A stretch of 64,000 bases of DNA from a virus, in IMG/VR virus record IMGVR_UViG_3300037307_000719, positions 1-64,000 of that record; one strand, 5' to 3'. The translations under genes and the position numbers were made by a program. The first letter of the stretch is position 1. Each line of letters starts with the position of its first letter. The notes beneath the pieces were generated by a model that searched no databases, was not told the DNA's origin, and was given only the letters and a program-made list of their open reading frames with translations. Of this stretch, positions 2,836-61,759 are shown piece after piece.

Positions 2836-4373
2836 GGGGTTAGGGCTTCGAGTTCGTCGAGCAGGGCGAGGTTGCGGGCGAAGGCCTCGGGGTGGATGGC
2901 GGTGATGTCCGGGGCGTCGGGGAGTTGGAAGTGGCGGGCGAGGTCTTCGAGGGAGCGGGTGGTATGGAGGGTTCCGGCGCGGTCGGGGTTGAAGATGAAG
3001 TGGATGGGGTTGAGGGTTGGGTGGTGGAGGGTGATGCGGAGGTCGGTGCCGCGGACAAGGATGGTTTCCTGGGAGCGTTTGCCGGCGTGGTATCTGGGGC
3101 GGGATTCCTCTTTTTTCCATTCGATGGTTTCGGTGGAGAGTTTGTATTTTTCCCCGGCTTGGAAGTGGTCGATAGTTTCGATGCAGAGGAGTTCCTCGGC
3201 GTCATCGATCCAGCCGATGCGCTGGATGGTGGAGACAGGGGAGAGCGGGGCGCGGTCTTGGTTGAAGGAGGCGAGAGCGGAATCGATGGCCTGGCGGGCG
3301 TCCGGGGAGATGGACCAGAGGCCGGAGTCGATGACTTCCTGGAGGGCGAGGCGGGTGCCGCGCTGGAGGGTGAGTTCGAGCGGGTGTTTGCGGTTGAGGG
3401 AGTGGAGGAAGGAGGAGAGGCGGGCGTCGATGGTGGAGGAGCGTTCCTGGAAGAGTGATACGTGGGTGCGGATGCGGCCGTCGGTGGCGAGGGTGACGTT
3501 GTCGCGGGAGTGGGATGGGTCGTTGCGGCGGATCATTTCGTCGCCACAGGCGTCGAAGTATCGGGAGGCGGCGGAGGCATCCCATGGCTGGGTGATGCAG
3601 CGGGCTTTGAAAAGATCGCGGCGGGCGGAGTCGAGCGCAGTGGCAAGTCGGTCTGGAGTAAGGGGGGTAATAAAGGTTTGTGTTTCGGGGCCGTTGGTGT
3701 GGTTGCCGGAAAGGTAGAGGACTCCGATGCGAAACGCCTTTTCTTGTTCGGGGCGGAAGCCGACGCCCGGGAAGAAGTTTGGGATGTCGAGCAAGAGCCA
3801 GGCGTGTTCAAAGCAGGAGGGATATTTGTTGTGAAGGAGATTGAGGGTGGAGGCATTGGCAATGAGCATGGCCTCGCCGTTGGTGCTCATAAGGTGAGGG
3901 AGCATGCGGAGGGTTGCGTGGGTGGAGTCGAGGGAGGTTTTGCCGTCGAGCCCTTGCGCAAGGGTTTCGTGGAGGAGTTTGACGGGCCAGTTGAGGGAGA
4001 AGGGAGGGTTGGCGAGGATGAGGTCGAAGCGGGTGTTGGTTTCGATGAGGAGGGGGTAGAGATCGAGCACGTCGCCGGTGAAGTGGGAGAAGATGGGATC
4101 GCAGCCGATGGGTTCCCATTGCTTGGGTTTGCCGGGGTGGGCGGCGGGATCGAGGTCGAGTGCCATGACCTCGCGGGTTTCCGGGGTAGCGACGCCGCGG
4201 AGCAGGGAGCCGTTGCCGCAGTGGAGGTCGAGCAGGGAGCGGCGGAAGGAGGGGAGAGCGGCGGCGAGGGCGCGCGCCCATGGTTCCGGGGTGAAGTATT
4301 GTTGGAGGCCTTTGGTGAGGGAGAGGGATGCGGGTGAAGTGAGGGCGGCGGGGGTGATGGATTGGCGTTTCAT
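2832..4373 (-). CDS. DNA methyltransferase, gamma-class (N6-adenine type), with large C-terminal presumed target-recognition domain
   Basis: 513 aa. AdoMet motif I is LLDLHCGNGSLL, followed by catalytic motif IV LANPPF (NPPF). A C-terminal extension of about 300 aa follows. Confidence 0.9.
   Translation of the reverse strand: MKRQSITPAALTSPASLSLTKGLQQYFTPEPWARALAAALPSFRRSLLDLHCGNGSLLRGVATPETREVMALDLDPAAHPGKPKQWEPIGCDPIFSHFTGDVLDLYPLLIETNTRFDLILANPPFSLNWPVKLLHETLAQGLDGKTSLDSTHATLRMLPHLMSTNGEAMLIANASTLNLLHNKYPSCFEHAWLLLDIPNFFPGVGFRPEQEKAFRIGVLYLSGNHTNGPETQTFITPLTPDRLATALDSARRDLFKARCITQPWDASAASRYFDACGDEMIRRNDPSHSRDNVTLATDGRIRTHVSLFQERSSTIDARLSSFLHSLNRKHPLELTLQRGTRLALQEVIDSGLWSISPDARQAIDSALASFNQDRAPLSPVSTIQRIGWIDDAEELLCIETIDHFQAGEKYKLSTETIEWKKEESRPRYHAGKRSQETILVRGTDLRITLHHPTLNPIHFIFNPDRAGTLHTTRSLEDLARHFQLPDAPDITAIHPEAFARNLALLDELEALTP
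3951..3964. repeat. Palindrome CCCTTGCGCAAGGG (14/14)
   Basis: Inside the methyltransferase gene (translated TLAQG). Confidence 0.95.
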
Positions 4374-4417
4374 GGTAAAAGCTGAAAATCTGAAATGCGA
4401 AAAAGCTGAAAAAGAGG
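4374..4417 (+). repeat. GCTGAAAN octamer array (direct)
   Basis: GGTAAAAGCTGAAAATCTGAAATGCGAAAAAGCTGAAAAAGAGG. It abuts the start codon of the methyltransferase gene (CAT 4371-4373). Confidence 0.9.
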
Positions 4418-7566: not shown

Positions 7567-7571
7567 GGTGT

Positions 7572-7612
7572 GGTAAAAGCTAAAATGCTGAAAAGCTGAA
7601 AAGCTGAAAGGT
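7572..7612 (+). repeat. GCTGAAAN octamer array (direct)
   Basis: Lies 5 nt from the VWA gene start codon (7566). A palindrome copy follows. Confidence 0.9.
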
Positions 7613-7616
7613 GAGG

Positions 7617-7630
7617 CTCTTGCGCAAGGG
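7617..7630. repeat. Palindrome copy CTCTTGCGCAAGGG (13/14)
   Basis: Intergenic. It abuts the stop of 7631..7897. Confidence 0.9.
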
Positions 7631-7897
7631 TCAGAAGGAGATGGTGAAGGTGAAGTTCGAGATGAAGAGAGAGCCCGCCGGAGAGCCGTTCATGTGGCAG
7701 CCCGGGAAGAATTCAGTGGCCTCGGTTTTGAATGAGACATCGGAAACGGAGGCTTTGCCATTGAGGACGAGGTTCAAGTAACCAGCAATGGTAAGGACAT
7801 AGCTTTTCGGGTCCGTTTGGGATGCTCCGAGGCGATTGGCGGCGGCGATGGAGACGAGTTTTTCGCCAAAGTCGTAGGCTTCTTCAGTGGTCATCAT
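7631..7897 (-). CDS. Hypothetical protein
   Basis: 88-aa ORF between the AAA and VWA genes. Its stop is directly followed by a palindrome copy. Confidence 0.65.
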   Translation of the reverse strand: MMTTEEAYDFGEKLVSIAAANRLGASQTDPKSYVLTIAGYLNLVLNGKASVSDVSFKTEATEFFPGCHMNGSPAGSLFISNFTFTISF

Positions 7898-8258: not shown

Positions 8259-8264
8259 TGCGAA

Positions 8265-8360
8265 GGCAAAAGCTGAAATTTTGAGACGCTGAAATGCTGA
8301 AATGAAGAGGAAAAGCGCGGAGCTTTTTCAGTATTTCAGCATTTTAGTTTTTCAGCATTT
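8265..8360. repeat. Inverted pair of GCTGAAAN arrays (long hairpin)
   Basis: Left arm 8265-8310, right arm 8323-8360 (TTTCAGC units). It lies between the AAA gene stop and the next start codon. Confidence 0.85.
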
Positions 8361-8361
8361 A

Positions 8362-9357: not shown

Positions 9358-9360
9358 AGG

Positions 9361-9421
9361 GGTAAAAGCTGAAATTTTGAAAAGCTGAAATGCTGAAAAG
9401 CTGAAATGCTGAAAAAAGAGG
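9361..9421 (+). repeat. GCTGAAAN octamer array (direct, about 6 units)
   Basis: Abuts the AAA gene start (9357). Confidence 0.9.
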
Positions 9422-9730: not shown

Positions 9731-9780
9731 GAGTGAGCAGTGATCAGTGAGCAGTGATCAGTGATCAGTGGAGGAGAAGA
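9731..9780 (+). repeat. GTGA(T/G)CA heptamer array + GTGGAGGAGAAGA
   Basis: GAGTGAGCAGTGATCAGTGAGCAGTGATCAGTGATCAGTGGAGGAGAAGA. It lies between the 18-bp operator-like palindrome and a 14-bp palindrome copy. Confidence 0.9.
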
Positions 9781-9794
9781 CCCTTGTGCAAGGG
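9781..9794. repeat. Palindrome variant CCCTTGTGCAAGGG
   Basis: Intergenic. Central CpG transition. Confidence 0.9.
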
Positions 9795-10608: not shown

Positions 10609-10610
10609 GG

Positions 10611-10646
10611 GAGTGAGCAGTGAGCAGTGAGCAGTGGAGGAGAAGA
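10611..10646 (+). repeat. GTGAGCA heptamer array + GTGGAGGAGAAGA
   Basis: Abuts the start at 10608. A palindrome copy follows. Confidence 0.9.
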
Positions 10647-10659
10647 CCCTTGCGCAAGG
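10647..10659. repeat. Palindrome copy CCCTTGCGCAAGG (13)
   Basis: Intergenic. Confidence 0.9.
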
Positions 10660-10689
10660 TTGGGCTTTGCGTTGCTGCGCCCGAACAAG

Positions 10690-11822: not shown

Positions 11823-11864
11823 GGTAAAAGCTGAAAGGTGAAAGCTGAAACGCTGAAATGAAAA
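11823..11864 (+). repeat. GCTGAAAN octamer array (direct)
   Basis: Abuts the start at 11820, with a terminator hairpin on its other side. Confidence 0.9.
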
Positions 11865-11892
11865 GCCCGCTGTCCGGTGGGACGAGCGGGCG
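11861..11892 (-). terminator. Rho-independent terminator (minus strand), near-identical copy of 9798-9830
   Basis: Stem GCCCGCT / AGCGGGC followed on the minus strand by TTTTCATTT. Confidence 0.7.
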
Positions 11893-11914
11893 GGGTCATG
11901 GGAAGGAAATGGAC

Positions 11915-12377: not shown

Positions 12378-13250
12378 TCACGCGGCTTCTTCGGTTAGGG
12401 CGGAGTCTTCCATCCATGGGGCCATGGTGGCGAGGATGGAGTTGGCTTTGTCGAGGGCGCGGGAGCGGTCGGAGCGGGACTCGGTGAGGGTCTCGGGGTG
12501 GAGGGAGCAGATCTGGGACTGGATGGACTGGCGGAGGGACTCGATTTCGGGGTCATCGAGGACGTTGATGTCAGGGAGGGAGTGGCAGAGGTCGCGGAGG
12601 GAGTTGAGGGTGGCGTCGGTGAGGCGGGAATCCGGGTTGGCGAGGCGTTCGACGAGGGCGGCGACGGGGGCGGCGATGCGGCGGTAGAGGTCGCGGGTGG
12701 CGTTGGTTTCCGCTTGTTGGACGCGGGCGTCGAGGGAGGCCTGGACCTCGGCCATGTCCTCGGAGGCGAGGGTGACGCGGAAGTCTTCCTTGTGGGGGAC
12801 GGGGGTGGCGGAAATCTCGCAGCGGAAGCGGCGGGCGGCCTCGAAGCGGTGGGGGTATTCGTCTTCCTTGAAGAGGGAGCCGCGCATTTCGCGGGCTTGG
12901 TTGATCCATTCGTCGTAGTGATCGATGAACCCTTGCACAAGGGTCTCGCGCTTGAAGCGGAGGTCGCGGATTTTTTCCATGTACTCGGTGAAGATGCGGG
13001 AGGCGATGATGCGCTCGCCCTTGTCCATCCATGGGAGGGTCTTGGAGTAGTGGAAGGAGCGGATCTGGCCGTCGATGGAGCGGATGGGTTCCATAGCGGC
13101 GCGGGGCCAGAGGCGGGACATCCAGCGTCCGGCATCGGCATCGGCCTGTTGCTGGAAGAGGACGTCACGGGTGATGTCCTTGTCCTGGCGGGTGGAAGGG
13201 ATGCCGGTGAGGGTCAAGCTGATGAGGAGGGATTTGTCGTGGAGGCTCAT
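12378..13250 (-). CDS. Conserved phage/plasmid-type protein, unknown function
   Basis: 290 aa, starts MSLHDKS (ATG 13248-13250) and abuts an octamer array. The upstream part of ORF 12378..13664 is rejected as repeat read-through. Confidence 0.85.
   Translation of the reverse strand: MSLHDKSLLISLTLTGIPSTRQDKDITRDVLFQQQADADAGRWMSRLWPRAAMEPIRSIDGQIRSFHYSKTLPWMDKGERIIASRIFTEYMEKIRDLRFKRETLVQGFIDHYDEWINQAREMRGSLFKEDEYPHRFEAARRFRCEISATPVPHKEDFRVTLASEDMAEVQASLDARVQQAETNATRDLYRRIAAPVAALVERLANPDSRLTDATLNSLRDLCHSLPDINVLDDPEIESLRQSIQSQICSLHPETLTESRSDRSRALDKANSILATMAPWMEDSALTEEAA
12930..12943. repeat. Palindrome variant CCCTTGCACAAGGG
   Basis: Inside gene 12378..13250. Confidence 0.9.
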
Positions 13251-13253
13251 GGT

Positions 13254-13299
13254 GGTAAATGCTGAAATTCTGAAACACTGAAAAGCTGAAATGAAGAGG
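13254..13299 (+). repeat. GCTGAAAN octamer array (direct)
   Basis: Abuts the start at 13250. Confidence 0.9.
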
Positions 13300-13321
13300 C
13301 GATGGGGAGGGATGAGTGGGG

Positions 13322-13827: not shown

Positions 13828-13920
13828 AAGGGACGGCCCGCCGTGGCGGGGTGCAATGGCTGGCTCCGGTCCCGGGATGACGGCGGGTGGAGTGCCACGG
13901 CGGGCAGAGGGGGAAGAGCC

Positions 13921-13953: not shown

Positions 13954-14044
13954 CAAGATAGAGGAGGGTGGCGACGGCGGCGGTCCAGGCGAGCAGGGCG
14001 AGGATGGCGGGCAGGGCGGAGTCGTGGTGGAGGTGGAGTTTCAT
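13934..14044 (-). CDS. 36-aa hydrophobic peptide
   Basis: MKLHLHHDSALPAILALLAWTAAVATLLYLALITDH. ATGA overlap with the dnaN stop. Its 3' end and stop lie inside the GTGATCA array. Confidence 0.4.
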   Translation of the reverse strand: MKLHLHHDSALPAILALLAWTAAVATLLYLALITDH

Positions 14045-15168: not shown

Positions 15169-15170
15169 GG

Positions 15171-15280
15171 GGCAAAAGCTGAAAGGCTGAGAATCTGAAA
15201 GGCTGAAAGGAAGAGATGAAAAAAAGAGAGGAGGCTCTGATTTCAGCTTTTCAGATTCTCAGCATTTCAGCGTTTATTTT
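15171..15280. repeat. Inverted pair of GCTGAAAN arrays (long hairpin)
   Basis: The arms share the core GCTGAGAATCTGAAA. The loop contains GAGAGGAGG (CCUCCUCUC on the minus-strand RNA). It abuts the dnaN start at 15168. Confidence 0.9.
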
Positions 15281-15284
15281 TAGA

Positions 15285-15298
15285 CCCTTGTGCAAGGG
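15285..15298. repeat. Palindrome variant CCCTTGTGCAAGGG
   Basis: Intergenic. It abuts the stop of 15299..15475. Confidence 0.9.
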
Positions 15299-15475
15299 TC
15301 AGCGGGTGATGTAAGCGTTGAGACCGATGGTGACGGGCTTGCCCTTGACTGTGGCGGCGGTCTTGACGTTGCCCTTGGAGGAGGCGACGACGAGGGTTTT
15401 GCCGGAGGCGGAGGGGGTGGGGGTCTGCATGGGGATGCGGACGACGAGCATTCCGTTTTCGATGGTGACGTTCAT
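15299..15475 (-). CDS. Small conserved phage protein
   Basis: 58 aa, MNVTIENGMLVVRIPMQ..SGKTLVVASSKGN... The stop TGA directly abuts a palindrome copy. Confidence 0.65.
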   Translation of the reverse strand: MNVTIENGMLVVRIPMQTPTPSASGKTLVVASSKGNVKTAATVKGKPVTIGLNAYITR

Positions 15476-16084: not shown

Positions 16085-17077
16085 TCAGGCGGCTTGGGCG
16101 GCCTGGACGGTGGATTCCAACTCGGCGGTTGCCTGATGGAGGAAGGCGACGAGCTTGGTCATGTCCTCGGCATTGAGGTCCATGGCATCGATGAGGGCGG
16201 AGTTCAGGCGATCGACAATGGAGTCGAGGGTGACGGGCGGGGCCGGTGGCGGGGTGGCCGCAGCCTTGGGAGTGGGGGCGGGGGCGGGTCCGCCGACGGT
16301 ACCGGGGCCGTTGATGATGACGGCTTCGGGAGCTTCATCGTCGGCTTCTTCGTCGTCGGCCTCTTCGTCGTCGGCCTCTTCGTCGTCGGCCTCTTCGTCG
16401 TCGGCCTCTTCGTCGTCGGCCTCTTCGTCGTCGGCCTCTTCGTCGTCGGCCTCTTCGTCGTCGGCCTCTTCGTCGTCGGCTTCTTCGTCGTCGGTTTCCG
16501 CGACGGGTGGCGGGGTTGGGTTGGCGGCTTCCTGGGCCTTGATGCGTTCGAGTTCGGCGGCATCGGCGGCTTGTTGGGCGCGGAGTTCCTCCTCTTCCTT
16601 GAGCTTGGCCTCGCGCTCGGCGATGGTCATGCCGTGGTCATGGAGGCAATCCAGCTCGGCGCCGACGGCGGCGGTGTTGCCGGAGAGGAGGATGGTGGCG
16701 AGGGCTTCCGGGGCGAGTTTCACCTTGGACTTACCCTTGAGGATGAGATCCCCGATGCGGGCGGTGCGGAAGGTGATGACGGCGTCGAACTTCTCCTCGG
16801 GGACGTGGCCGGGGACGACCAGGGCGGAGATGAGGTTGGCGACGGTGCGGGCGGAGTGGATGCTTCCCTCGGAAACTCCACGGGACTTCAGCATTCCATA
16901 GACGGTCTGGCCGGCACGGAGTTTGATGCTGTCGAGGTGGTAGATCAGCTTGCCGCGATCCACGAAGGCGCGGTTGATGACCTTGGACTGGGCTGCGATC
17001 TGGTCGGCGGTGGCGGCAGCGGTGAGGCTGGCGACATCGGCGAGCATGAGGCCGGTGGATTTGGTTTTAGCGGACAT
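16085..17077 (-). CDS. Protein with a long acidic (DDEEA)n tract
   Basis: 330 aa. It has a globular N-terminus, a coiled-coil, eleven 15-nt repeat units encoding DDEEA, and a Pro/Ala linker. Confidence 0.85.
   Translation of the reverse strand: MSAKTKSTGLMLADVASLTAAATADQIAAQSKVINRAFVDRGKLIYHLDSIKLRAGQTVYGMLKSRGVSEGSIHSARTVANLISALVVPGHVPEEKFDAVITFRTARIGDLILKGKSKVKLAPEALATILLSGNTAAVGAELDCLHDHGMTIAEREAKLKEEEELRAQQAADAAELERIKAQEAANPTPPPVAETDDEEADDEEADDEEADDEEADDEEADDEEADDEEADDEEADDEEADDEEADDEAPEAVIINGPGTVGGPAPAPTPKAAATPPPAPPVTLDSIVDRLNSALIDAMDLNAEDMTKLVAFLHQATAELESTVQAAQAA
16336..16500. repeat. Tandem 15-bp repeat x11 (CGTCGTCGGCCTCTT), encodes (DDEEA)n on the minus strand
   Basis: Read directly. 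The central nine units are identical. Confidence 0.95.
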
Positions 17078-17252
17078 GGCGGTGGTGGTGGTGTTGTTGT
17101 TTCATGGTTGGGGTTGGATTCTCGGGTGGAGAGGGGGAAGAGTGAGCCGTGGAAGAGTGAAGAGACCCTTGCGCAAGGGTCCGAGGAAACTTGATGACGT
17201 TGCGCGGAGTGCGGACGGGGAAAGGGATGATGTTGGAGATGGGGGCGTTCAT
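17067..17252 (-). CDS. Doubtful small ORF
   Basis: 61-aa ORF whose second half runs through intergenic-type repeats and a palindrome copy. Confidence 0.25.
   Translation of the reverse strand: MNAPISNIIPFPVRTPRNVIKFPRTLAQGSLHSSTAHSSPSPPENPTPTMKQQHHHHRHVR
17166..17179. repeat. Palindrome CCCTTGCGCAAGGG (14/14)
   Basis: Upstream of the start at 17077. Confidence 0.95.
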
Positions 17253-17871: not shown

Positions 17872-17900
17872 CAAAAAAGGGTGAGCGGTTGCCCGCTCAC
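17872..17900 (-). terminator. Rho-independent terminator (minus strand) after the moron gene
   Basis: Stem GTGAGCGG / CCGCTCAC with a GCAA loop on the minus-strand RNA, followed by TTTTTT. Confidence 0.75.
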
Positions 17901-17912
17901 CCTTGCGCAAGG
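17900..17912. repeat. Palindrome copy CCCTTGCGCAAGG (13)
   Basis: Lies between the moron gene stop and its terminator. Confidence 0.9.
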
Positions 17913-17926
17913 TTGCTTTTGATTTG

Positions 17927-18805
17927 TCAGGCTGTGATGTTTTCTGATTGGAAGGATTCCAAGGCGCGCACTAGGTCAAATTGCCAAGGCGCGCTTGAAA
18001 TGCTTTCCGCCCGCAAGGCGATTGCCCCTTGTTTTAGATAGGAGGCAAGCTCCGCCCGCTTTGAGCGTTCTTGCGCCTTGGAAAGGCCGTTGCCGCTTTG
18101 CGTTCGGGTGACAATGGCAATCACCAAGCGGCGGAACCCGTTCGCCTTGGAAACCGCTTTGCGGGATAGGTCCACCCGTTCCATCGCGGCAATGCAAGAT
18201 TCGATTTGTTCCAAGCGTTCCCGCAGGCGTTCCAATCTTTCCGCGTCGGTTTCCTTGTCATATTCTGGCAAGGCCAATTGCGCAAGGGTTGGCTGGGAAT
18301 CCGGTAAAGGCCGCCAACGGCGATTCAAATCAAGCCCCTTGCGGCCTTCCACCATGCGGAAGCATTCGCCAACATCCTCCCGATTCAAGGGGCGGGAAAA
18401 CGCATTGCGCGAGGCTAGCACTAGTCCCACGATGCCGGAAATTTCCGCCTTATCGGTTTCTGATAGGGTGATTGGTTGCCGCTTTCCTCGCTTTGCGCGG
18501 GTTGATTGAGCAATCAGGCAATCAAGGGTTTCCCGCCATGATTGGCCAAGGGGGACCGCAAGGCCGCCCGCGTCGGGATGTCCGCCGCGTGATTGCCGCT
18601 TGTCCCTTGTCCCCGTTAATGATCGGGAAACTAGGTTGGCGACAAATTCAACGGTTGCGAGCGCAATTGCGTTTTCGGTGGATTCCTTGGAAAGGTGAAT
18701 TTCCAAGCGGTTCCGCCAGTATTCCCCGCCGTGATTCTCTGAAAGATTCACGCGTGATGAAAAAGCGGCAAAAGCCGCGTGTGTGTCGTTAGGTTGCGTT
18801 TTCAT
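17927..18805 (-). CDS. Hypothetical protein with foreign codon usage (moron-like)
   Basis: 292 aa. It uses TTG/CTT, GAA, CAA and TCA codons, unlike the CTG/GAG/CAG-rich neighbours. It has its own upstream repeat region and a downstream terminator. Confidence 0.8.
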   Translation of the reverse strand: MKTQPNDTHAAFAAFSSRVNLSENHGGEYWRNRLEIHLSKESTENAIALATVEFVANLVSRSLTGTRDKRQSRGGHPDAGGLAVPLGQSWRETLDCLIAQSTRAKRGKRQPITLSETDKAEISGIVGLVLASRNAFSRPLNREDVGECFRMVEGRKGLDLNRRWRPLPDSQPTLAQLALPEYDKETDAERLERLRERLEQIESCIAAMERVDLSRKAVSKANGFRRLVIAIVTRTQSGNGLSKAQERSKRAELASYLKQGAIALRAESISSAPWQFDLVRALESFQSENITA

Positions 18806-18819
18806 GGCGACGAAAGGCT

Positions 18820-18963
18820 AGCGTTTCCGCTTTCGCTTGTCACCCTTAAAGGGTCGCAAGGCGCAAGGGATTCGCGGTTTTCGTCGGTTTTTTTCGATTT
18901 CCGCGCGGTTTCATAGCGTTTCCCTTGTCACCCTTAAAGGGGCGTAGGGCGCAAGGGATTCGG
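18820..18963. repeat. Two ~45-57-bp direct repeats (iteron/operator-like) upstream of the moron gene
   Basis: AGCGTTTCC..CTTGTCACCCTTAAAGGG.CG.A.GGCGCAAGGGATTCG occurs at 18820-18877 and 18915-18963. Each copy contains the dyad CCCTTAAAGGG and a palindrome half-site GCGCAAGGG. Confidence 0.7.
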
Positions 18964-18973
18964 AAATTTTAGC

Positions 18974-18986
18974 CCCTTGCGCAAGG
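18974..18986. repeat. Palindrome copy CCCTTGCGCAAGG (13)
   Basis: Lies at the upstream edge of the moron island. Confidence 0.9.
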
Positions 18987-19124: not shown

Positions 19125-19128
19125 AGAT

Positions 19129-19639: not shown

Positions 19640-19649
19640 GTTTGTCATC

Positions 19650-25391: not shown

Positions 25392-25392
25392 A

Positions 25393-51812: not shown

Positions 51813-53126
51813 TCAGGCTACGAGCGGCAGCTCCGGGGCGCGTTCCGGGTGGTCTCTGGCGGCGATGTAGGAAGCCCAAGCCAGGGACAAATCATGATAG
51901 AGGTCTTCCGGCACCCGCGACTTCCTCCAGTGGCGGTCCCAGTCCCGCAGCGGGCGGCGGCCCTTTGGGCGTGCGGTGTCCCTTACGACGTAGGTGGCGG
52001 CGCGTCCGATCGCGTCGAGCGTTCCGGCGCGCTCCCTGCACCATTGCAGAAAGGTTGGTCCCCTGCCCTTGCGCAAGGGCATGAGAGGCAGCAGGTGGTG
52101 CAGCAGGATGTCCCGTGTGACGGCTCCGGACTTCACCAGATCATTGAAGTCCTGCTTTTCCTCGGTGGGCCAGAAGGCGACCACGTCCCTCACCATGGGA
52201 TGAAGGCGGTCCAGCAATCCCTCACCCTCGAACCAGCGTGCGCCCGCCCCGTCCGCATCCGCAATGGCAAACAACCGGGCCTTGGGGTTCAGGTTGTGGG
52301 CGAAGAGCTTGGAACCTGACGAGGCTCCGCGCAGACCAATGACGGCAACCGGCGGCCATGTCTCGCGGCGGTGCCAGCCCATGACGGAGACAAGGGCGAG
52401 GGCGTCCCACTGCCCCTCCATGAGGAACAGGTATTCCGCCGTCGAGGGATTCCCTATGAGGAAGGGCCAGGCACCGCATTTTTTTGGGTTGAAATTCCAT
52501 GAGGCTTTCGCATCGCGGCCGTGGTGGCCCTTGCTACCCGGGGCCAGACGAATGTGAACGGAAACAGGCAGCGGACCCGCGGCTGACGGCATTTCCACAA
52601 GGAACGCCTCACGCATGGAATCCCACCACTGGTAGCTGCCCATGAGCCCGTGGCTCGCGGCCCATCTCACGCAGTCCGGGTCGATCCCCCGCCACTCGGC
52701 GATGCGGTTGATTTCTCCTTCCGCCCGCAGCAGGCGGTCGCACGCCTCCTGCCAAACCGCGAGCTGATGCCCGGTCATCGGAACGGGCGTGTTGTCCTCT
52801 TTTTTGGCTGGTGCGGGCTTTGGCGCGGAGCGGGCAGCCGGGTTTGGGCTGATCCCATGGGACGAGGCCAGTCTCTCCAGAGTGTCCTTCAGGGAGGTTC
52901 CCCATGTCTTCTGCAAGTAGTCGATCGCGTCGCCTCCCGCACCGCAGCCAAAGCAATGAAATCGGCCCGTGTCATCATCCACCTGGCAGGAAGGAGTTCT
53001 TTCCTCATGAAACGGGCAGCACGAAAACCGCGCCGTGCCGGAACGCCGAACCGGATGACCGTCCCTCTCGAACAAAGTGGAGAGCGGAGGCAGGGACTCC
53101 TTGATGCGCGTGATGTCGTACTTCAT
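51813..53126 (-). CDS. DNA primase (CHC2 zinc finger + Toprim)
   Basis: Starts MKYDITRIK (ATG 53124-53126). Zinc finger: CCPFHEERTPSC..HCFGCGAGGD. Toprim-like: EGQWDAL...FAIADADGAG. Confidence 0.9.
   Translation of the reverse strand: MKYDITRIKESLPPLSTLFERDGHPVRRSGTARFSCCPFHEERTPSCQVDDDTGRFHCFGCGAGGDAIDYLQKTWGTSLKDTLERLASSHGISPNPAARSAPKPAPAKKEDNTPVPMTGHQLAVWQEACDRLLRAEGEINRIAEWRGIDPDCVRWAASHGLMGSYQWWDSMREAFLVEMPSAAGPLPVSVHIRLAPGSKGHHGRDAKASWNFNPKKCGAWPFLIGNPSTAEYLFLMEGQWDALALVSVMGWHRRETWPPVAVIGLRGASSGSKLFAHNLNPKARLFAIADADGAGARWFEGEGLLDRLHPMVRDVVAFWPTEEKQDFNDLVKSGAVTRDILLHHLLPLMPLRKGRGPTFLQWCRERAGTLDAIGRAATYVVRDTARPKGRRPLRDWDRHWRKSRVPEDLYHDLSLAWASYIAARDHPERAPELPLVA
52066..52079. repeat. Palindrome CCCTTGCGCAAGGG (14/14)
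   Basis: Inside the primase gene (translated PLRKG). Confidence 0.95.
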
Positions 53127-53128: not shown

Positions 53129-53142
53129 CCCTTGCGCAAGGG
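53129..53142. repeat. Palindrome CCCTTGCGCAAGGG (14/14)
   Basis: Lies 2 nt upstream of the primase start codon, at the edge of attP. Confidence 0.95.
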
Positions 53143-53341: not shown

Positions 53342-54361
53342 GTGGCCAGTTGTTTCCAGCGCAAGGACTCCCCGTTTTTCTGGATTCGGTTCAAAACACC
53401 TGATGGGAGATGGAAGCAGCGGTCTTCCGGCGTGAGAACGGATGCGCCGGGGGCGTTGCGCAAGGTCCACCAGATGGTGGTGGAGGAAACGGCACGGGAG
53501 GCGATGCGGGAAACGGAGGGTGCTTCGGCGATGTTCCGGCACTGGGTTCCGGGCTGGATCGATTACCGTTACAAGAACGAGAGGTCGAGGGTTCGGTGTT
53601 TGAATGCGTGGGCTCATTGGTCAGTGTTCTTGGAGGAAAGGAGGTTGGCTCACCCGGCGGAGATGACTTATGCGGTGGCCCATGAGTTCATGCGCTGGAG
53701 GACGAATCCGCCGAAGGGGGCGGCAAGGCGCGTGGCGGCGTGGAATACGTCGGTGGTGGAGGTGAGGTTCATGGGTGCGGTGATGCAGGAGGCGCTGCGG
53801 CGCGGCTGGATTGCGGTGAATCCGTTCGCGTCCCTCGGGCTGTCGAAGCGGGCGAGCAAGGAGAAGCGGGCGATCACGCGGGAGGAGGAGGAGAGGATTT
53901 TCGAGGCGTTGAAACGCAAGAAGGGCGCGCCGTGGATGTGGGAGGCGTTCCTGGTGGCGATGCGGCAGGGCTGCCGGATGCGGGAGGTGGCGGTGCCGAT
54001 GGAGCAGGTGGACGAGAAGGCGATGGTGATCGTCTTCAATGCGAAGGGAGGGAAGAAGCATGCGGCACCCTTGCACAAGGATCTGCTGCCGCTGGTGAGG
54101 AAGGCGAGACGGGAGAAGAGGAATGTGCTGGTGAGGCTGCCGCGCCAGCCTTCGCCGAAGTGGGGGAAGTTTTTCTCGGGCATGGGGATGGATGATCTGT
54201 GTTTCCATTGCACGCGGGTCACGGTGGTCACGAGGCTTTGTGAAGCCGGGTTTTCGGAGAGCCAGACGATGGCTTATGTGGGGCACGCTTCGGCGTCGGT
54301 GCACGCGATTTACCGGAAGATGAGGCCGACTGCGGTGGCTGCTTTGGGGAGTGCGTTGTAG
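53342..54361 (+). CDS. int: Tyrosine recombinase / phage integrase
   Basis: 339 aa. The N-terminus FWIRFKTPDGRWKQRSSG is an SAM-like arm-binding pattern. The C-terminus has HCTRVT (H-x-x-R) and GHASASVHAIY (catalytic Tyr). Confidence 0.92.
   Translation: MASCFQRKDSPFFWIRFKTPDGRWKQRSSGVRTDAPGALRKVHQMVVEETAREAMRETEGASAMFRHWVPGWIDYRYKNERSRVRCLNAWAHWSVFLEERRLAHPAEMTYAVAHEFMRWRTNPPKGAARRVAAWNTSVVEVRFMGAVMQEALRRGWIAVNPFASLGLSKRASKEKRAITREEEERIFEALKRKKGAPWMWEAFLVAMRQGCRMREVAVPMEQVDEKAMVIVFNAKGGKKHAAPLHKDLLPLVRKARREKRNVLVRLPRQPSPKWGKFFSGMGMDDLCFHCTRVTVVTRLCEAGFSESQTMAYVGHASASVHAIYRKMRPTAVAALGSAL
54068..54080. repeat. Palindrome variant CCCTTGCACAAGG
   Basis: Inside the integrase gene. Confidence 0.85.
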
Positions 54362-54566: not shown

Positions 54567-55341
54567 GGTCCGGGTCTCCGGTGAGGGATTCTTCGAGTGC
54601 GGCGGCAAGGGTGATCATGGGGGTGAGCAGCTCCAGCAAGGCGCGGCGCTGGGGGGTGGGGAGCTTTACGATGCGGTCGGGGCCGCCCATTTCCCTCTCC
54701 CATTGCTGGAGCTTGAAGACGACGCCCTGGATGGTGTTGATGCCGCTGCCTTGTCCGGAGAGGGCGGTGATCTGGGAGGTGTGAAGGATTTTCCCGGCCT
54801 GGATGGAGCGGGAAAGCTCGAGCGGGGAGAGGGATTCTCGTTTGGCGATGGATGCCCAGCGTTCCTGTTCCTGCGGGCTGGGGAGCTTGGAGAGGACGAA
54901 GTAGTGTTCGGAGTTGAGGGCGTGTTTTTCGCGGAAGTCCAGCGAGGTCTGGCCGATGGAGTCGGCCTTGGTGACGTCGGCAAGGTCGAACTCGGCTTGT
55001 TCGAGGGCGACGGCGACGCGGGCGACGCCGAATTTTTCGCGGCCGTAGTTGATGTGGTCCGCAAGGACGCAGTGGAAGGCGCTCTTGACCGAGTGGATGG
55101 TCTTGAGCAGGTCGAGCCATTGTTCGTAGGAGATGTGGCCCTCGATGTGGAGGCCGTGCGGGGTGCAGCGGATGTTCTGGCCGCTGGCGAGGATGATGGT
55201 GGAGGCGTTGCGGGCCTCAGTTGGCGTTTGGGGTGGCGGGTCTGCGGATTTTCGAGAGGAGGGCCGTGGCGGTTTGGGCGCTGATTTTTTTGTTGCGCCA
55301 GTGGCGGGTTTTCCCGACTTGGGAGTAGATTTTGCAGGCAT
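54556..55341 (-). CDS. Hypothetical protein (Lys/Pro-rich N-terminus)
   Basis: Frame of ORF 54556..55443 from ATG 55339-55341. The start is uncertain because it overlaps the upstream gene by about 125 nt. Confidence 0.6.
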   Translation of the reverse strand: MPAKSTPKSGKPATGATKKSAPKPPRPSSRKSADPPPQTPTEARNASTIILASGQNIRCTPHGLHIEGHISYEQWLDLLKTIHSVKSAFHCVLADHINYGREKFGVARVAVALEQAEFDLADVTKADSIGQTSLDFREKHALNSEHYFVLSKLPSPQEQERWASIAKRESLSPLELSRSIQAGKILHTSQITALSGQGSGINTIQGVVFKLQQWEREMGGPDRIVKLPTPQRRALLELLTPMITLAAALEESLTGDPDHAG

Positions 55342-55942
55342 GTTCGCTTTTTTGGTGGGTGGATGGGGTGAGGCCGAGAGAGCGTTGCCACGCTTTGACG
55401 ACTTTGGAGATGGCGGAGGCGGTGATGTGGTTTTGGCGGGCATATTCGCGTTGGCAGGGAAGTCCGTTGAGGGCGGCGAGCTTGGCGGCGAAGGCGAGCC
55501 CGGCGCTGTTGATTTTGGGGTTCTTGGATGAGAGAAGGCCGCCGACGATGATCTGGAGGTAGTTGGCCTTTTCGACCCGCACGGCGGTATCCACCTCGGT
55601 TTGGTGCCAGCGGAGAATCTCGCCGGCCTGCTGCGGGGTGATGGAGAAGCGGTCCGCGATGACGCTTTCGGGGGTGTCGATGACGGTCATGTCGGGCTCG
55701 CATTTGGCTAGGGATGAGTCTGCGATGTCCGAGACGGAGAAGGGTGAATGGCCGCCGACATCCGTTGAATCGTCTGGAGCGGAGTCCACATTGAGGCGGC
55801 GGACTTTTTCCCGCTCTTCCTCGGATAGTGAGGCGATCCACTCGGCGTGGGCTTTTTTCGCCTCGTTGTGGAGGGCTCTGGCGTGGGCCTCGTAGCTGCC
55901 CGTCGCCCTTGTGCAAGGGTGTTTGTCAGGCGGCTTTTTCAT
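55217..55942 (-). CDS. Hypothetical regulatory-region protein (possible HTH)
   Basis: 241 aa from ATG 55940-55942. The C-terminal segment ITASAISKVVKAWQRSLG is HTH-like. Confidence 0.65.
   Translation of the reverse strand: MKKPPDKHPCTRATGSYEAHARALHNEAKKAHAEWIASLSEEEREKVRRLNVDSAPDDSTDVGGHSPFSVSDIADSSLAKCEPDMTVIDTPESVIADRFSITPQQAGEILRWHQTEVDTAVRVEKANYLQIIVGGLLSSKNPKINSAGLAFAAKLAALNGLPCQREYARQNHITASAISKVVKAWQRSLGLTPSTHQKSEHACKIYSQVGKTRHWRNKKISAQTATALLSKIRRPATPNAN
55906..55919. repeat. Palindrome variant CCCTTGTGCAAGGG
   Basis: Inside gene 55217..55942. Confidence 0.9.
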
Positions 55943-56129
55943 TGGCACAGGATGCTCTTTGGGTGAATTCCTGCTCCAAGGTGGCCCATTCGATCGCCTC
56001 TTCTGGGCTGGAACAGGTGGCCGTCCTCATGGCTCGCAAGAAGTCGAGCACTTGAGTCAGAACCTTCTTTTTCGGGGTGGTTTGGGCCAATTTCTCGTCT
56101 TTGCTCTCTTCGGTTTGGGTGGGTGTCAT
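55926..56129 (-). CDS. Small Cro-position protein
   Basis: 67 aa starting MTPTQTEESK. It is the first gene leftward of the AT-rich divergent region. Confidence 0.5.
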   Translation of the reverse strand: MTPTQTEESKDEKLAQTTPKKKVLTQVLDFLRAMRTATCSSPEEAIEWATLEQEFTQRASCANEKAA

Positions 56130-56242
56130 GACGTTGTTGCCTTTGGAATAAAGGCCAAATGTGGGAAGATTTATCAAGCTCGAATAAATAAAATTTGCAC
56201 TTTTCCCAAGTGTTGGCATTTTGTCCCTTTCTCCCACTCGTT
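56130..56242. promoter_or_regulatory. AT-rich divergent promoter/operator region (immunity switch, putative)
   Basis: 113 bp of much lower GC lie between divergent genes 55926..56129 (-) and 56243..56644 (+). Confidence 0.5.
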
Positions 56243-56644
56243 ATGAAATTCCCTAATTACCTAAAATATTTCGTTGATACTGAGAAGTATCGGTTGGTTT
56301 CACTTGCCAAAAGGTCGAATGTTCACGCCTCGGACTTGTCAAAAGTTCTAAACAAAAAGAAAACCTGTGGGCTGAAAATGGCGATCCAGGTCATCGAGGG
56401 GCTGGAGCCGGAGCATCAGGCGCAGGCGTTGATGCTTTGGATCGCGGATCAGATTCCACCGCAATTCCAGCATTTGCTCTACATCGTGCGGGCCGATGAC
56501 AGGAACGATAAGCCGAAAGATGTGGATATTCGCACGATTGAGGGATCAATCCAAGTGTTGGAGAAGAAGGCGGAGACCAACGATGCTTTGCGCACTGTTT
56601 TGCTGAATCTGGCACAGGCGTTTGCCATAGAGGATGCTGGCTAA
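56243..56644 (+). CDS. XRE/CI-like HTH repressor (putative)
   Basis: 133 aa. HTH-like segment LVSLAKRSNVHASDLSKVLNKKK. A terminator follows. Confidence 0.7.
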   Translation: MKFPNYLKYFVDTEKYRLVSLAKRSNVHASDLSKVLNKKKTCGLKMAIQVIEGLEPEHQAQALMLWIADQIPPQFQHLLYIVRADDRNDKPKDVDIRTIEGSIQVLEKKAETNDALRTVLLNLAQAFAIEDAG

Positions 56645-59409: not shown

Positions 59410-59410
59410 G

Positions 59411-59423
59411 CCTTGCGCAAGGG
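59411..59423. repeat. Palindrome copy CCTTGCGCAAGGG (13)
   Basis: Lies exactly between the convergent stops TGA 59407-59409 (+) and TCA 59424-59426 (-). Confidence 0.9.
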
Positions 59424-59765
59424 TCAGGTTTCCTTGAGCAGGTAGAAGTAGCGCACGGAGAGGTTGCCGTCTTTCTCCGCGCCGTCTCGCATGGAGGTGA
59501 TGCACCATGGAGGGGAGACGCGGTAGGCGGTTTCGATGGCCATTTCCATGCAATCAATCGAGTGATCGGTAAGGGTGTCGCCGGATTCGAGGTATCGCAA
59601 GATGGGAGAGGGAGGAGTGACGCGGGAGAATTCCTGCCATTGGTCAGGCGGTGATGCGGAAAGATCCTGTGGGTCGAGGTCGGAAAAGTCCTCGTCTGGA
59701 TCGAGGCCGAGGGAAAGCAGCATGGCGCGGAATTCTTCGTCGGAGATAGGGCGTTTGGGTTTCAT
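59424..59765 (-). CDS. Hypothetical protein
   Basis: 113-aa ORF. ATGA overlap with the SNF2 gene stop. Its own stop abuts a palindrome copy. Confidence 0.7.
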   Translation of the reverse strand: MKPKRPISDEEFRAMLLSLGLDPDEDFSDLDPQDLSASPPDQWQEFSRVTPPSPILRYLESGDTLTDHSIDCMEMAIETAYRVSPPWCITSMRDGAEKDGNLSVRYFYLLKET

Positions 59766-61759
59766 GGTGATTTCTTGCGGCCTTGGATGAGCTTTTGTTT
59801 GAGCCTTTCCTTGGCGACGGCAAAGTCAAAAAGCGGGTCGGTGGTGAGGCCGGCCTTGGCGCGGGCTATGTCTGCGGCGGTGACTTTGGGGGAGACGATG
59901 GGTGGGTGCCATTCGCGGAAGCGTTGTTGGGACCAGCCGAGGCGTTTGCGGATGGCGGGCCAGGAGGATTCGAGCACGGATTCATCGGTGTGGGGGCCGG
60001 AGGATTTGAAGGAGTCGAAGGCGGCGGCGAGCAGGAGTTCGGGGTCGATGTCGTCCACGGTCTCGGGGAAGAGGCGGCCGTCGAGCATGAGCTGGGCGGT
60101 GTCGCTTTTGTCGGAGAAGAGGTCTTTCATCCGTTCATCGATTGATCCGGATGTGATGATGGGATAGACGGTGACTGGGCGTGGCGAGTTGAGCCGCCAG
60201 ATGCGGTCCACGAATTGGGCGAAGACATCGTAGGCCCATGGGTAGCCGACGGCGATGAGGTGGGCGCAGTTCTCGAACGAATGGCCGCGGCCCATGGCCT
60301 CGTAGGATGCGATGAGGGTGGAGGCTTGGCCGCGCTTGAACGAGGCGGCGAGCAGGCCGCGGGTTTCGGGCGAGGTGGAGCCGTCGAGCAGCATGGCTTC
60401 CACTTGGGCTTCGAGGAGCAGGCGGTGGAGGGTTTGGTTGAAGTGGGCGAAGGGCGAGCCGACCATGATTTGTTCGCCGTTGTCGAGCAGATCGGAGATC
60501 AGGCCGAGGACGGTGACGAGCTTCGGGGTCCATGGGGTCCAGGAGCGAAGGCGGCCGGGGTGGGCGTTGGAGATGACGTCAGCGAGGCTTGGAGAGTCCG
60601 GGCAAAGTGCGGCGATGCGGAGGTTGGTGAGCTGCATACCGAGGGCGGCGAGGCCGGAAACGCGGGTGCCGGGCCGCCCGGCGGGCGCGGTGGGGCGGAA
60701 GTCGAGGTGTTCCTTGTACACCGTCGCTTGGGCGGAGCCCATGGCGCACTCGACGGGGCGGACGGTTTTCGGGACGATGGACTCGCCGCAGTCCGCCTTG
60801 CGGCAGCGCAGGACGACGGGTGCGAGGAGCCGCCAGAGGCGCTGGACGTTGCAGACGCGGGCGGTGGTTTTCTGGATGCGGACGCTGGAGCGGCGGCGGT
60901 TTTCGTTGGCGGCCTTGTATTCCTCGCGGGTGAGGTAGCGGTCGATTTCGAGGTGTTGGCGGGCGAATTGTTCCTTGCCGTCGGGGCCGTAGGGCCAGCG
61001 GGAGGTGGGGTTTTGATGGCCGCCGGAAGCCCACCAGGCGAGGGTGAAGATGGATTCCATGCGGTTTTTGGCCGGGGTTCCGGTCATGAGCAGGCGGAAT
61101 TCCGGGTTGAGCAGGGTGATGCCTTTGGAGGTTTTCGAGTCGCCCTGGATGGCGGTGGCCTCGTCGAGCACGATGCAGTCGAATCCCGCGCCGAGGCCTT
61201 CGAGCTGCTTGAGTTCGCGGGCGAAGCTGGGTTTCCAGACGCAGGTGATGCCGCCGCGCTCGGTGCCGACGCCGTGCATGTATTCGGAGAAGTCCGGTTT
61301 GCGTCCGAGCAGGCGGGCGAGGGAGTATTCCTTGGCGAGGGTGCGGGCCTCGATGAGGCGTTGTCGTTCGCGCTGGCGCATGACGATTTTGCCCTTGGCA
61401 TTCACCTCCGGCTCCCACTCGTCCGCGCCGTTGCGGGTGAGTGCTTCGTAGCCGACGAGGTAGAACTTGGGGAGCTGGCCCTTGCGCAAGGGCTGCGCGG
61501 GGCGATCGATGCGATGGTGGCGGACATCGTCCATGTCCTTGATGGTGGGAAGCGGGATACCGAAGTGCTTGATGGCGGTTTCGCGGAGTTGGGAGTGGAG
61601 GTCTGCCGGGGCGGCGAGCAGGACGCGGCGGGCACGCCAGAGGAAGGGGATGCAGAACCCGGCAAACGATTTTCCGGTGCCCTGTTCATGGGCAAGGACA
61701 AGGCCATTGACGAGGGCGGCGCGGGCATAGTGGTCACGCTGGAATGGTTTGAGACGCAT
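59762..61759 (-). CDS. SNF2/RAD54-family helicase
   Basis: 665 aa. Motif I AHEQGTGKS, motif II IVLDEATAIQ, motif III LLMTGTPAKN, motif VI-like QFVDRIWR. Confidence 0.93.
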   Translation of the reverse strand: MRLKPFQRDHYARAALVNGLVLAHEQGTGKSFAGFCIPFLWRARRVLLAAPADLHSQLRETAIKHFGIPLPTIKDMDDVRHHRIDRPAQPLRKGQLPKFYLVGYEALTRNGADEWEPEVNAKGKIVMRQRERQRLIEARTLAKEYSLARLLGRKPDFSEYMHGVGTERGGITCVWKPSFARELKQLEGLGAGFDCIVLDEATAIQGDSKTSKGITLLNPEFRLLMTGTPAKNRMESIFTLAWWASGGHQNPTSRWPYGPDGKEQFARQHLEIDRYLTREEYKAANENRRRSSVRIQKTTARVCNVQRLWRLLAPVVLRCRKADCGESIVPKTVRPVECAMGSAQATVYKEHLDFRPTAPAGRPGTRVSGLAALGMQLTNLRIAALCPDSPSLADVISNAHPGRLRSWTPWTPKLVTVLGLISDLLDNGEQIMVGSPFAHFNQTLHRLLLEAQVEAMLLDGSTSPETRGLLAASFKRGQASTLIASYEAMGRGHSFENCAHLIAVGYPWAYDVFAQFVDRIWRLNSPRPVTVYPIITSGSIDERMKDLFSDKSDTAQLMLDGRLFPETVDDIDPELLLAAAFDSFKSSGPHTDESVLESSWPAIRKRLGWSQQRFREWHPPIVSPKVTAADIARAKAGLTTDPLFDFAVAKERLKQKLIQGRKKSP
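61479..61492. repeat. Palindrome CCCTTGCGCAAGGG (14/14)
   Basis: Inside the SNF2 gene (translated PLRKG). Confidence 0.95.

Follow-up and report, generated by a model that had tools for sequence, protein, structure and literature searches.

KorB, a ParB-family CTPase, is the global regulator of the IncP plasmid RK2 and reads OB sites (PMC11790492). Here, we describe the 14-bp perfect palindrome CCCTTGCGCAAGGG, which recurs throughout positions 1 to 64,000 of IMG/VR virus record IMGVR_UViG_3300037307_000719 (hereafter the window, that is, the whole 64-kb stretch analyzed), whose identified genes are those of a temperate tailed phage. As with OB (core TTTAGCGGCTAAA) on RK2, a short palindrome is dispersed on a replicon of about 60 kb, both near and far from promoters (PMC11790492). 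Moreover, relatives of the window phage encode a ParB-family protein with a helix-turn-helix; KorB itself has an N-terminal CTPase domain. Unlike RK2, the element is a tailed temperate phage with an integrase and not a plasmid, it has about twice as many sites, many of them intragenic or abutting stop codons, and it has no known KorA-like partner. The phage protein differs from KorB in its size (about 500-560 aa), in having an additional Cys-rich region, and in its long C-terminal part, and its gene was not found in the window.

The phage sites also resemble those in the ParB-parS and Noc-NBS systems (16-bp palindromes) in being palindromes of 14-16 bp, some of them intragenic (PMC7383237). 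ParB/Noc specificity is switched by four residues (173, 179, 184, and 201; PMC7383237), and the phage proteins differ between motif types at the equivalents of 173, 177, and 184, the first and last of which belong to these four. Unlike parS and NBS, the phage motif has an unrelated sequence and an arm spacing of 4 or 6 bp; unlike in ParB-parS, no ParA partner was seen, and a phage that integrates would not be expected to need a partition role.

Cluster A mycobacteriophages carry stoperators of 13-14 bp, proposed to block transcription across the prophage, and the phage described here shares with them tens of dispersed copies in a temperate genome, often in short intergenic gaps (PMC9283540, PMC6550527). 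In both cases the motif is specific to a lineage, and the stoperator motif varies together with its reader (PMC9283540, PMC6550527). However, stoperators are asymmetric, keep an orientation relative to transcription, and are recognized by an immunity repressor that is a two-domain monomer, whereas the phage site is a perfect palindrome to which no immunity repressor has been linked; the resemblance is one of genomic layout only.

The cyanobacterial palindrome HIP1 (GCGATCGC) is likewise hyper-abundant and conserved beyond codon constraint (PMC5861425), and it is associated with orphan methyltransferases (PMC4390886). HIP1 is an 8-mer that covers whole host chromosomes at about one copy per gene; the phage word, in contrast, has 14-16 bp, is lineage-specific, is confined to phage DNA in what we examined, and has the core-and-spacer anatomy typical of a protein-binding site. 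Finally, the phiC31 repressor binds conserved inverted repeats, and phage P1 has dispersed C1 operators, which are asymmetric. Both share with our case highly conserved sites scattered, mostly intergenically, in a temperate phage genome, but their hosts are different and their sequences and repressor families unrelated.

Results

Twelve exact copies of the palindrome occur in the window, and none in 100 dinucleotide shuffles. Allowing up to two mismatches gives 26 copies, whereas the shuffles had 0.65 on average and never more than 3. Markov models of order 1-4 trained on the window predict 0.0007-0.006 copies of the 14-mer (12 observed) and 0.009-0.065 of its 12-mer core (17 observed), and each of the other palindromes of 10-14 bp is found at most twice. 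A preliminary description made from the letters of the window had judged this abundance not to be chance, and the enrichment far above both nulls bears it out. All 12 exact copies that it listed were confirmed, and all its 13/14 and centre-variant copies were recovered, two of them with a 14-mer start one base earlier (22458 and 59410); we add one two-mismatch copy at 18275 (CAATTGCGCAAGGG). The 14-mer was not found in the literature searched, and IMG/VR contigs with more than one copy were mostly relatives of the window phage.

The relatives comprised five IMG/VR contigs with 2-7 exact copies, together with JGI, ENA, NCBI, and Logan contigs reached via protein homologues (numbered with L below). 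They were found in metagenomes, and no nucleotide or protein match to the window phage was obtained among INPHARED phages, a collection that lacks LR796685. Four independent metagenome-assembled genome (MAG) records of relatives point to Verrucomicrobiota (an Akkermansiaceae contig, a Verrucomicrobiales contig, and two Verrucomicrobiota bacterium records), a host assignment based on MAG names alone, in which the Akkermansiaceae match from the terminase search is one 3.5-kb MAG contig.

Purifying selection on the nucleotide sequence of the palindrome is strong, both between genes and in coding DNA. At orthologous sites, 278 of 298 motif positions were identical (93%), versus 1175 of 1718 flanking positions (68%; 40 bases each side). 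In the reverse direction, the 18 alignable sites of the relatives were all kept in the window (18/18), the two scored as absent being alignment gaps. Within the methyltransferase gene, the window and L041 translate the site in frame 1, giving TLAQG, whereas L062, L059, and L066 use frame 0 and give PLRKG, PLCKG, or PLRNG. One word read in two frames of orthologous genes indicates selection on the nucleic acid, and the earlier claim that selection acts there and not on the protein is now far better supported.

To describe the variation, 87 sites from 11 contig groups were folded onto the half-site. Deviations at positions 1 to 7 numbered 11, 3, 2, 1, 1, 14, and 22: the arms CCTT/AAGG scarcely change, the base at the outer edge is less constrained, and variation extends over the four bases of the centre, which gives the anatomy R-CCCTT-(RY)2-AAGGG-Y (R, purine; Y, pyrimidine). 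Changes at the centre were transitions in 34 of 36 cases, compared with a background transition fraction of 0.43 in the same alignments (nominal P ~7e-11, which is overstated since some sites are homologous). This suggests a constraint on the purine/pyrimidine pattern, and the centres seen all alternate (GCGC, GTGC, GCAC, ACGC, GCGT, ACGT, and ACGCGT). Among them, GCGC, ACGT, and ACGCGT are self-complementary, as a symmetric reader of double-stranded DNA would require and a hairpin loop would not. The preliminary description had confined variation to the central CpG; this applies to 7 of the 14 window variants, whereas the other seven deviate at positions 1, 2, 3, or 14. Across the relatives it does not hold, with 13 of the 34 centre transitions at the outer G/C of GCGC. 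The flanks show a preference for a 5' purine and a 3' pyrimidine in 92% of half-sites, and extending the consensus gives (tg)A-CCCTTGCGCAAGGG-T(ca), whose flanks partly explain why TGA stops so often abut the palindrome.

The whole site set changes together between lineages. In L066 (LR796685.1; terminase 59% identical to that of the window), the word is CCATTACGTAATGG; it abuts the terminase stop, overlaps the start codon of the primase gene, and occurs within the methyltransferase gene, three positions where the window has its own word. L302 and L172/L310 (terminase 63% for L172) use the 16-mer CCCTTACGCGTAAGGG, with eight copies in 20 kb of L302, mostly at stops and in intergenic gaps, plus one 14-mer CCCTTACGTAAGGG in the ParB-like gene. 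In L032, L045, and L173 (terminase 54% for L173), GCGC is mixed with ACGC/GCGT centres. The Akkermansiaceae contig L061 (terminase 59%) has TTGA-CCGTTACGTAACGG-T-ATG ahead of the small terminase gene, and the more distant L298, L307, and L308 have a few related CTTA...TAAG palindromes. Between lineages, the arms change from C-G to A-T or G-C at positions 3/12, the other arms being CCATT and CCGTT. Such a change in concert implies a reader whose specificity changes alongside.

Regarding placement, our gene calls put 14 of the 26 copies in intergenic DNA, one over a predicted start, and 11 inside genes. That 15 of 26 lie outside genes or at their edges, in a window with a coding fraction of 0.876, agrees with the earlier estimate of about half intergenic. 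Copies abut stop codons at four places, as had been noticed: at 7617-7630 (CTCTTGCGCAAGGG) the stop of gene 7631-7897 (minus strand); at 15285-15298 (centre GTGC) that of a conserved 58-aa gene (15299-15475, minus strand); at 27601-27614 (centre GTGC; GCGC in 3300028549_002218) the stop at 27600; and at 59410-59423 (GCCTTGCGCAAGGG) both convergent stops of the large terminase gene and of gene 59424-59765, a position where L058, L059, L062, L066, and L172 have a lineage-specific palindrome. Two more copies stand close to stops. The one at 31052-31065 (centre GCAC) is 1 nt past a stop and 23 nt ahead of the next ATG, and the one at 55906-55919 (centre GTGC) is 6 nt past the stop of gene 55926-56129 (minus strand), the orthologous stop being abutted by a copy in L062.

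Terminator-like hairpins directly adjoin the copies at 9781, 17900, 30694, and 40102, and another lies about 30 nt downstream of 27601. The intergenic copy 9781-9794 (centre GTGC) stands 4 nt past its minus-strand hairpin, with TCTTCTCCTCCAC and a heptamer array coming next; likewise, the intergenic copy 10647-10660 (CCCTTGCGCAAGGT) is followed on the minus strand by TCTTCTCCTCCAC, a heptamer array, and an ATG. At 17900-17913 (CCCTTGCGCAAGGT, intergenic), an arm of the palindrome forms the base of the hairpin, at the left edge of a lower-GC segment.

The copies at 30694, 40102, and 53129 lie 1-2 nt ahead of start codons. Downstream of the major capsid gene, the exact copy 30694-30707 sits in the order terminator, TTGACA, palindrome, C, ATG; the exact copy 40102-40115 sits in the order terminator, TTGACA, palindrome, T, ATG. 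The layout of these two copies is repeated with CCGTTACGTAACGG in L061. They are the two copies that had been placed between a TTGAC box and an ATG, and the reading TTGACA-palindrome-N-ATG is correct for both. Both divergent control regions carry a copy. The exact copy 53129-53142 is 2 nt upstream of the primase start in the primase/integrase region, and in L066 that lineage's own palindrome overlaps the primase start codon. The exact copy 19626-19639, 24 nt ahead of where gene 19395-19601 starts, separates the leftward early block from the rightward late block; L297, L299, and L300 have a copy at the same position.

A TTGAC(A) box 13-17 nt upstream of the ATG, with a G-rich stretch between, is found at most plus-strand (late) genes, for example those near 19705, 20280, 22060, 25500, 27745, 31070, and 57060, and the two TTGACA-palindrome-ATG cases are part of this late-gene pattern. 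At that distance, the box is too near the ATG to be a sigma-70 -35 box. A sigma-70 promoter role for the palindrome was rejected as well, because promoter-like sites were not enriched (3 vs 2.2) and the TTGACA-palindrome-ATG spacing is unfit for a -35/-10 pair.

The densest cluster, five copies in 17.1-19.7 kb, surrounds gene 19129-19398, which encodes an 89-aa helix-turn-helix (HTH)-like protein. Besides the copies at 17900 and 19626, it contains an exact copy at 17166-17179, 88 nt upstream of gene 16085-17077 (minus strand); the copy at 18275-18288, in gene 17927-18388, whose two mismatches make it a doubtful member, although L297 has the same variant; and the copy at 18974-18987 (CCCTTGCGCAAGGT), which falls in a long stretch of non-coding DNA downstream of the HTH-like gene, a location where L297, L299, and L300 also have one. 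Within that lower-GC non-coding stretch (18389-19128), a segment of about 45 bp that includes the half-motif CCCTTGCGCC is duplicated; the short palindrome CCCTTAAAGGG, the motif's arms around a 1-nt centre, occurs there at 18843 and 18931.

Among the intragenic copies, the exact one at 3951-3964 lies in the NPPF methyltransferase-like gene (2832-4373, minus strand), just past the NPPFSLNWP codons; it is kept in L041, L059, and L062 and replaced by CCATTACGTAATGG in L066. The copy at 12930-12943 (centre GCAC), in gene 12378-13250 (minus strand), is kept in 3300028549_002218 and L297 and missing from 3300048586_000902. The 1102-aa gene 22083-25391 contains both 22458-22471 (GCCTTGCGCAAGGG) and the exact copy 24486-24499, which is kept in three relatives. 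Further exact copies lie at 39107-39120, in a doubtful 68-aa open reading frame (ORF) at 39002-39208; at 43379-43392, in the 1169-aa gene 40753-44262; at 45100-45113, in gene 44994-46133; and at 52066-52079, in the primase gene (51813-53126, minus strand). The copy at 54068-54081 (CCCTTGCACAAGGA) in the integrase gene is kept in relatives, so coding constraint may hold it. The exact copy at 61479-61492, in the SNF2 helicase gene and 267 nt from its start, is kept in L058, L062, and L059; in L059, its centre is GTGC, which turns Arg into Cys and leaves the arms intact. Intragenic copies had been described in all three frames: frames 0 and 1 stand, whereas frame 2 (PCTR) depends on the long ORF 55217-55948 being real. 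No copies occur in two stretches of lower G+C (31.1-39.1 kb and 45.1-52.0 kb).

In search of a reader, we found a ParB/KorB-family protein of about 500-560 aa encoded downstream of the methyltransferase gene in all seven loci (six contigs) that cover this slot: L041, L059/L060, L062, L173, L066, L172, and L302. It consists of a ParB N-terminal domain, a helix-turn-helix with KorB-domain matches, a Cys-rich region, and a long C-terminal part, and its profile matches the solved structures of Spo0J, ParB, Noc, and KorB (8qa8, 1r71) with E-values from 4e-22 to 2e-11. The recognition helix, GK-x-x-x-W-x-(K/H)-R-R, can be aligned to the Caulobacter ParB segment GKSRSHVANT. It reads (T/S)-E-(S/T)...K in the GCGC type, T-V-S...H in the ACGCGT 16-mer type, and S-E-N...H in the CCATTACGTAATGG type. 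The helix is otherwise strongly conserved, and the differences between types fall at the equivalents of R173, S174, A177, and A184. Motifs with G at position 6 (TTGC) are accompanied by Lys at the 177 equivalent, and those with A (TTAC/TTAT) by His, Met, or Ser; we infer that a lysine-guanine contact, which is chemically sensible, may lie behind the Lys/G pairing.

Two other window proteins were considered. The 330-aa protein of gene 16085-17077, just downstream of copy 17166, has a conserved HTH-like N-terminus, about ten acidic DDEEA repeats, and a conserved C-terminus; profile-profile comparison gave no relation to ParB, and the protein had no PDB match. The Cro/CI-like HTH gene 56243-56644 (plus strand), beside the AT-rich divergent region 56130-56242 near the integrase, is probably the immunity switch.

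Discussion

The palindrome is a real and strongly selected feature, and, judging from sequence comparison, its copies most likely serve as scattered sites at which a symmetric DNA-binding protein docks. A reader with two-fold symmetry, presumably a protein dimer, would recognize it on double-stranded DNA at about 25 sites over the phage genome. Bound at stops, terminators, starts, divergent regions, and intragenic sites, it could control transcription genome-wide, by roadblock, silencing, or the loading of a sliding clamp. We tentatively favor this explanation, dispersed parS/OB-like sites for a protein that controls the genome globally, at a little under an even chance. Of the roles offered by the preliminary description, the operator for a dimeric regulator fits best. 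The best candidate for the reader in the phage family would be the ParB/KorB-family protein encoded downstream of the methyltransferase gene. A more specific version is possible and, on balance, rather improbable: a CTP-dependent ParB/KorB-type clamp would be the genome-wide regulator in temperate tailed phages of Verrucomicrobiota, with about 25 loading sites at the borders of genes and also maintained within ORFs, and site and helix would co-diversify into the GCGC 14-mer, the ACGT 14-mer, and the ACGCGT 16-mer types.

Several observations weigh against this explanation. First, the window has no ParB-like ORF, the best E-value being 0.48 with a hidden Markov model built from the relatives' proteins and filters off; its sites are nevertheless as intact as those of the relatives. 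The ParB slot, between the homologues of genes 2521-2835 and 62847-63155, straddles the window ends (1-2520 and 63156-64000), which do not overlap, and 939 bp of the JGI source contig (64,939 bp) lie outside the window. The slot is occupied by other genes, namely a short PolX-like nucleotidyltransferase (13-564) and a metallophosphoesterase with its N-terminus cut off (63370 to beyond 64000), along with several small ORFs. Membership in the ParB/KorB class is supported by sequence for the phage family but not claimable for the window, because the defining protein was sought there and not found. The ParB gene of this phage may have been lost very recently, its product may be supplied in trans, a short version may lie in the remaining 0.9 kb, or the reader may be another protein. 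Second, arm spacings of both 4 and 6 bp occur, between lineages and also together within L302 and L172, which a rigid dimer would not accept and a hairpin would. Third, the association of helix and motif types rests on 7-9 sequences and is confounded with phylogeny. Besides, the AT-rich divergent region beside the Cro/CI-like gene (56.1-56.3 kb) has no copy, and the stability of the motif as folded RNA, discussed next, counts on the same side.

The rival that survives best is a hairpin CCCUU-loop-AAGGG in RNA (or single-stranded DNA), read by a sequence-specific RNA-binding or processing factor and punctuating polycistronic transcripts through stability, processing, or translational control. 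With its R...Y flanks, the motif folds at -10.6 kcal/mol (z-score about -3.7), most variation falls in the four bases that would form the loop, and the arm changes between lineages (positions 3/12) are complementary. The 16-mer CCCTTA-CGCG-TAAGGG would keep a 4-nt loop on a longer stem, and it coexists with the 14-mer in L302 and L172. Many copies touch stops or stand 0-2 nt ahead of starts, and there is a slight excess of complementarity at -1/+1 (48 vs 40.3 of 80, p=0.02). However, pairing ends there, with 24 complementary pairs at ±2 (22.4 expected) and 21 at ±3 (21.7 expected) in the 80 sites, and no consistent U-tract or T-run follows. Within a lineage, the stem is invariant in sequence: the 87 sites include no compensatory variant and no excess of G-U-compatible arm changes. 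The loop is nearly always self-complementary and changes by transitions, neither of which a loop has reason to do; the sense RNA of the window contains both GUGC (two copies) and GCAC (five copies), and no Rfam family matched. On this balance, a symmetric reader of double-stranded DNA accounts for these features better, and we regard the hairpin as unlikely.

A DNA-modifying enzyme could also have the palindrome as its target, be it the NPPF methyltransferase of the phage (perhaps acting with the ParB-like protein encoded next to it), a methyltransferase of the host, or a nickase, with the centre transitions as a mutational by-product. The NPPF methyltransferase-like gene is conserved in the family, has a copy itself at a conserved position, and overlaps the ParB-like gene in L062; each change at the centre amounts to C to T on one of the two strands, and the link of HIP1 to orphan methyltransferases offers a parallel (PMC4390886). 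The preliminary description had gone further and explained the variants by deamination of G(5mC)GC (5mC, 5-methylcytosine). This was not supported: 13 of the 34 centre transitions are outside the CpG, homologous copies differ in either direction, and an ACGT or ACGCGT centre is fixed in whole lineages, which speaks for selection and not decay. Moreover, the sole recognizable phage methyltransferase is of the amino type, not C5, and would make no 5mC. Given the non-CpG variation and the symmetric changes fixed by lineage, deamination is not needed to explain the pattern. A site of 14-16 bp far exceeds those typical of methyltransferases, and modification alone fails to explain why sites are kept at gene boundaries. 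Hence, an enzyme target seems to us more doubtful than the hairpin.

Less probable again is a stoperator-like or CI-type operator, by which a small repressor encoded in the window, either the HTH-like protein of 19129-19398 or the Cro/CI-like protein of 56243-56644, would silence the prophage. The five-copy cluster surrounds gene 19129-19398, the two-gene operon of this gene is bracketed by copies in all lineages, L027, L297, L299, and L300 among them, three related palindromes stand immediately upstream of the operon in the distant remnant L298, and the dispersed repressor sites of Cluster A mycobacteriophages are a precedent (PMC9283540, PMC6550527). As a determinant of specificity, though, the HTH-like protein was rejected. 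Its homologues are 33-56% identical and the putative recognition helix is not conserved, yet the 14-mer is identical; nor does identity track motif type, since the homologue in L302 (16-mer) is 45% identical versus 35% in L299 and 33% in L300 (14-mer types). No Pfam DNA-binding domain was detected in it, and the control region of the Cro/CI-like gene is free of copies.

A host-genome signature (HIP1-like, uptake, or Chi-like) acquired by long residence, or a recombination hot spot at mosaic boundaries, is very improbable. Copies are missing from the lower-GC and probably recently acquired modules at 31.1-39.1 and 45.1-52.0 kb, and in HIP1, too, conservation exceeds the expectation from codon constraint (PMC5861425). 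However, short non-phage flanks (about 9.7 kb in L297 and 1.7-5 kb in L173) hold no true copy, versus eight in about 7 kb of adjacent phage DNA; related lineages have different words at the same positions; and the multi-copy stretches among the first 80 metagenome matches listed come down to one repeat array from another phylum. The proposed analogy with HIP1 is not supported: the word is specific to phage lineages, differs between related ones, and was not found in these limited non-phage flanks. The mosaic-boundary role had also been proposed before. A variable gene is flanked by copies in the window and in 3300028549_002218, and 5.5% of alignment break points lie within 30 bp of a copy versus 2.2% at random, but this enrichment is weak and confounded by the intergenic location of copies.

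Two last candidates were rejected: CRISPR-repeat mimicry, because the exact 14-mer in an Armatimonadota repeat is in the wrong phylum with spacers that do not match the phage and was treated as a coincidence, and poxvirus-type topoisomerase IB sites (CCCTT on both strands, as in the arms), because no such enzyme was detected and other lineages have CCATT or CCGTT. The repeat concerned, a 36-nt CRISPR-like unit GTCCCGAAGGACCGCCCTTGCGCAAGGGATTGAGAC of which the 14-mer is the stem-loop, forms small scattered arrays on Armatimonadota (Fimbriimonadales) contigs, L189 (ERZ511473 contig, 296 kb) and L227 (OGCH01000023.1).

Genomic context

The genes of the window run on the minus strand over 1-19.6 kb (early block) and on the plus strand over 19.7-49.2 kb (late block). 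Besides the methyltransferase-like gene, the minus strand encodes a DUF2201 protein (6.3-7.6 kb), a MoxR-type AAA protein (8.4-9.4 kb), a DnaN-like protein (14.0-15.2 kb), SSB (49.2-49.7 kb), the primase (51.8-53.1 kb), and the SNF2 helicase (59.8-61.8 kb). The plus strand encodes the lambda-type portal (20.3-22.0 kb), the major capsid protein (29.6-30.6 kb), the integrase (53.3-54.4 kb), and the gpA-type large terminase (57.6-59.4 kb). A tRNA-Met (CAT) gene lies amid the head genes at 26231-26306. PDB sequence searches with the methyltransferase, the 554-aa protein, and the integrase gave no match.

GC skew is strongly positive nearly throughout the window, up to +0.40, and from +0.26 to +0.40 over 2-28 kb. 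Its sign is identical over the minus-strand (1-19.6 kb) and plus-strand (19.7-49 kb) genes, an unusually strong strand asymmetry that is independent of transcription.

Arrays built from 3-7 octamer units (GCTGAAAN) occupy many intergenic regions and often stand immediately ahead of starts. They were located at 4374-4417, 7567-7616, 8259-8361, 9358-9421, 11850-11914, 13251-13321, 13960-14040, 15169-15284, 19640-19690, 21993-22082, 25392-25525, 27690-27740, and 62807-62846. They read GCTGAAA on the plus strand regardless of the direction of the neighboring gene, except where arrays face in pairs and so form long inverted repeats. This fixed strand suggests a polarity signal at the DNA level (Chi-like, or for the direction of replication or packaging) or a 5'-leader element. 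Heptamer arrays (TGATCAC/TGCTCAC)n were found at 9740-9780, 10609-10646, about 13830-13870, and about 16100-16140. Two of them, on the minus strand, directly follow the palindrome and TCTTCTCCTCCAC and make up a G-poor, pyrimidine-rich leader ahead of early genes that lack a Shine-Dalgarno sequence.

Conclusions

Dispersed sites governing an entire mobile element have been studied in depth in only a handful of cases, namely RK2 KorB, Cluster A stoperators, P1, and phiC31. The uncultivated phage family described here appears to follow the same logic, with an unusually clean evolutionary record: conservation in two reading frames, a lineage-wide switch of the word, and a candidate ParB-family reader that differs at ParB/Noc specificity positions. 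It offers a system in which the co-evolution of a protein with its DNA sites can be tested directly, and possibly a case of gene silencing based on a ParB CTPase in phages. At the practical level, the palindrome is a marker for recognizing and typing Verrucomicrobiota phages in metagenomes. If the reader is indeed a CTP-dependent clamp, these sites would be the phage counterpart of the RK2 KorB network and would represent an alternative layer to CI-type immunity.

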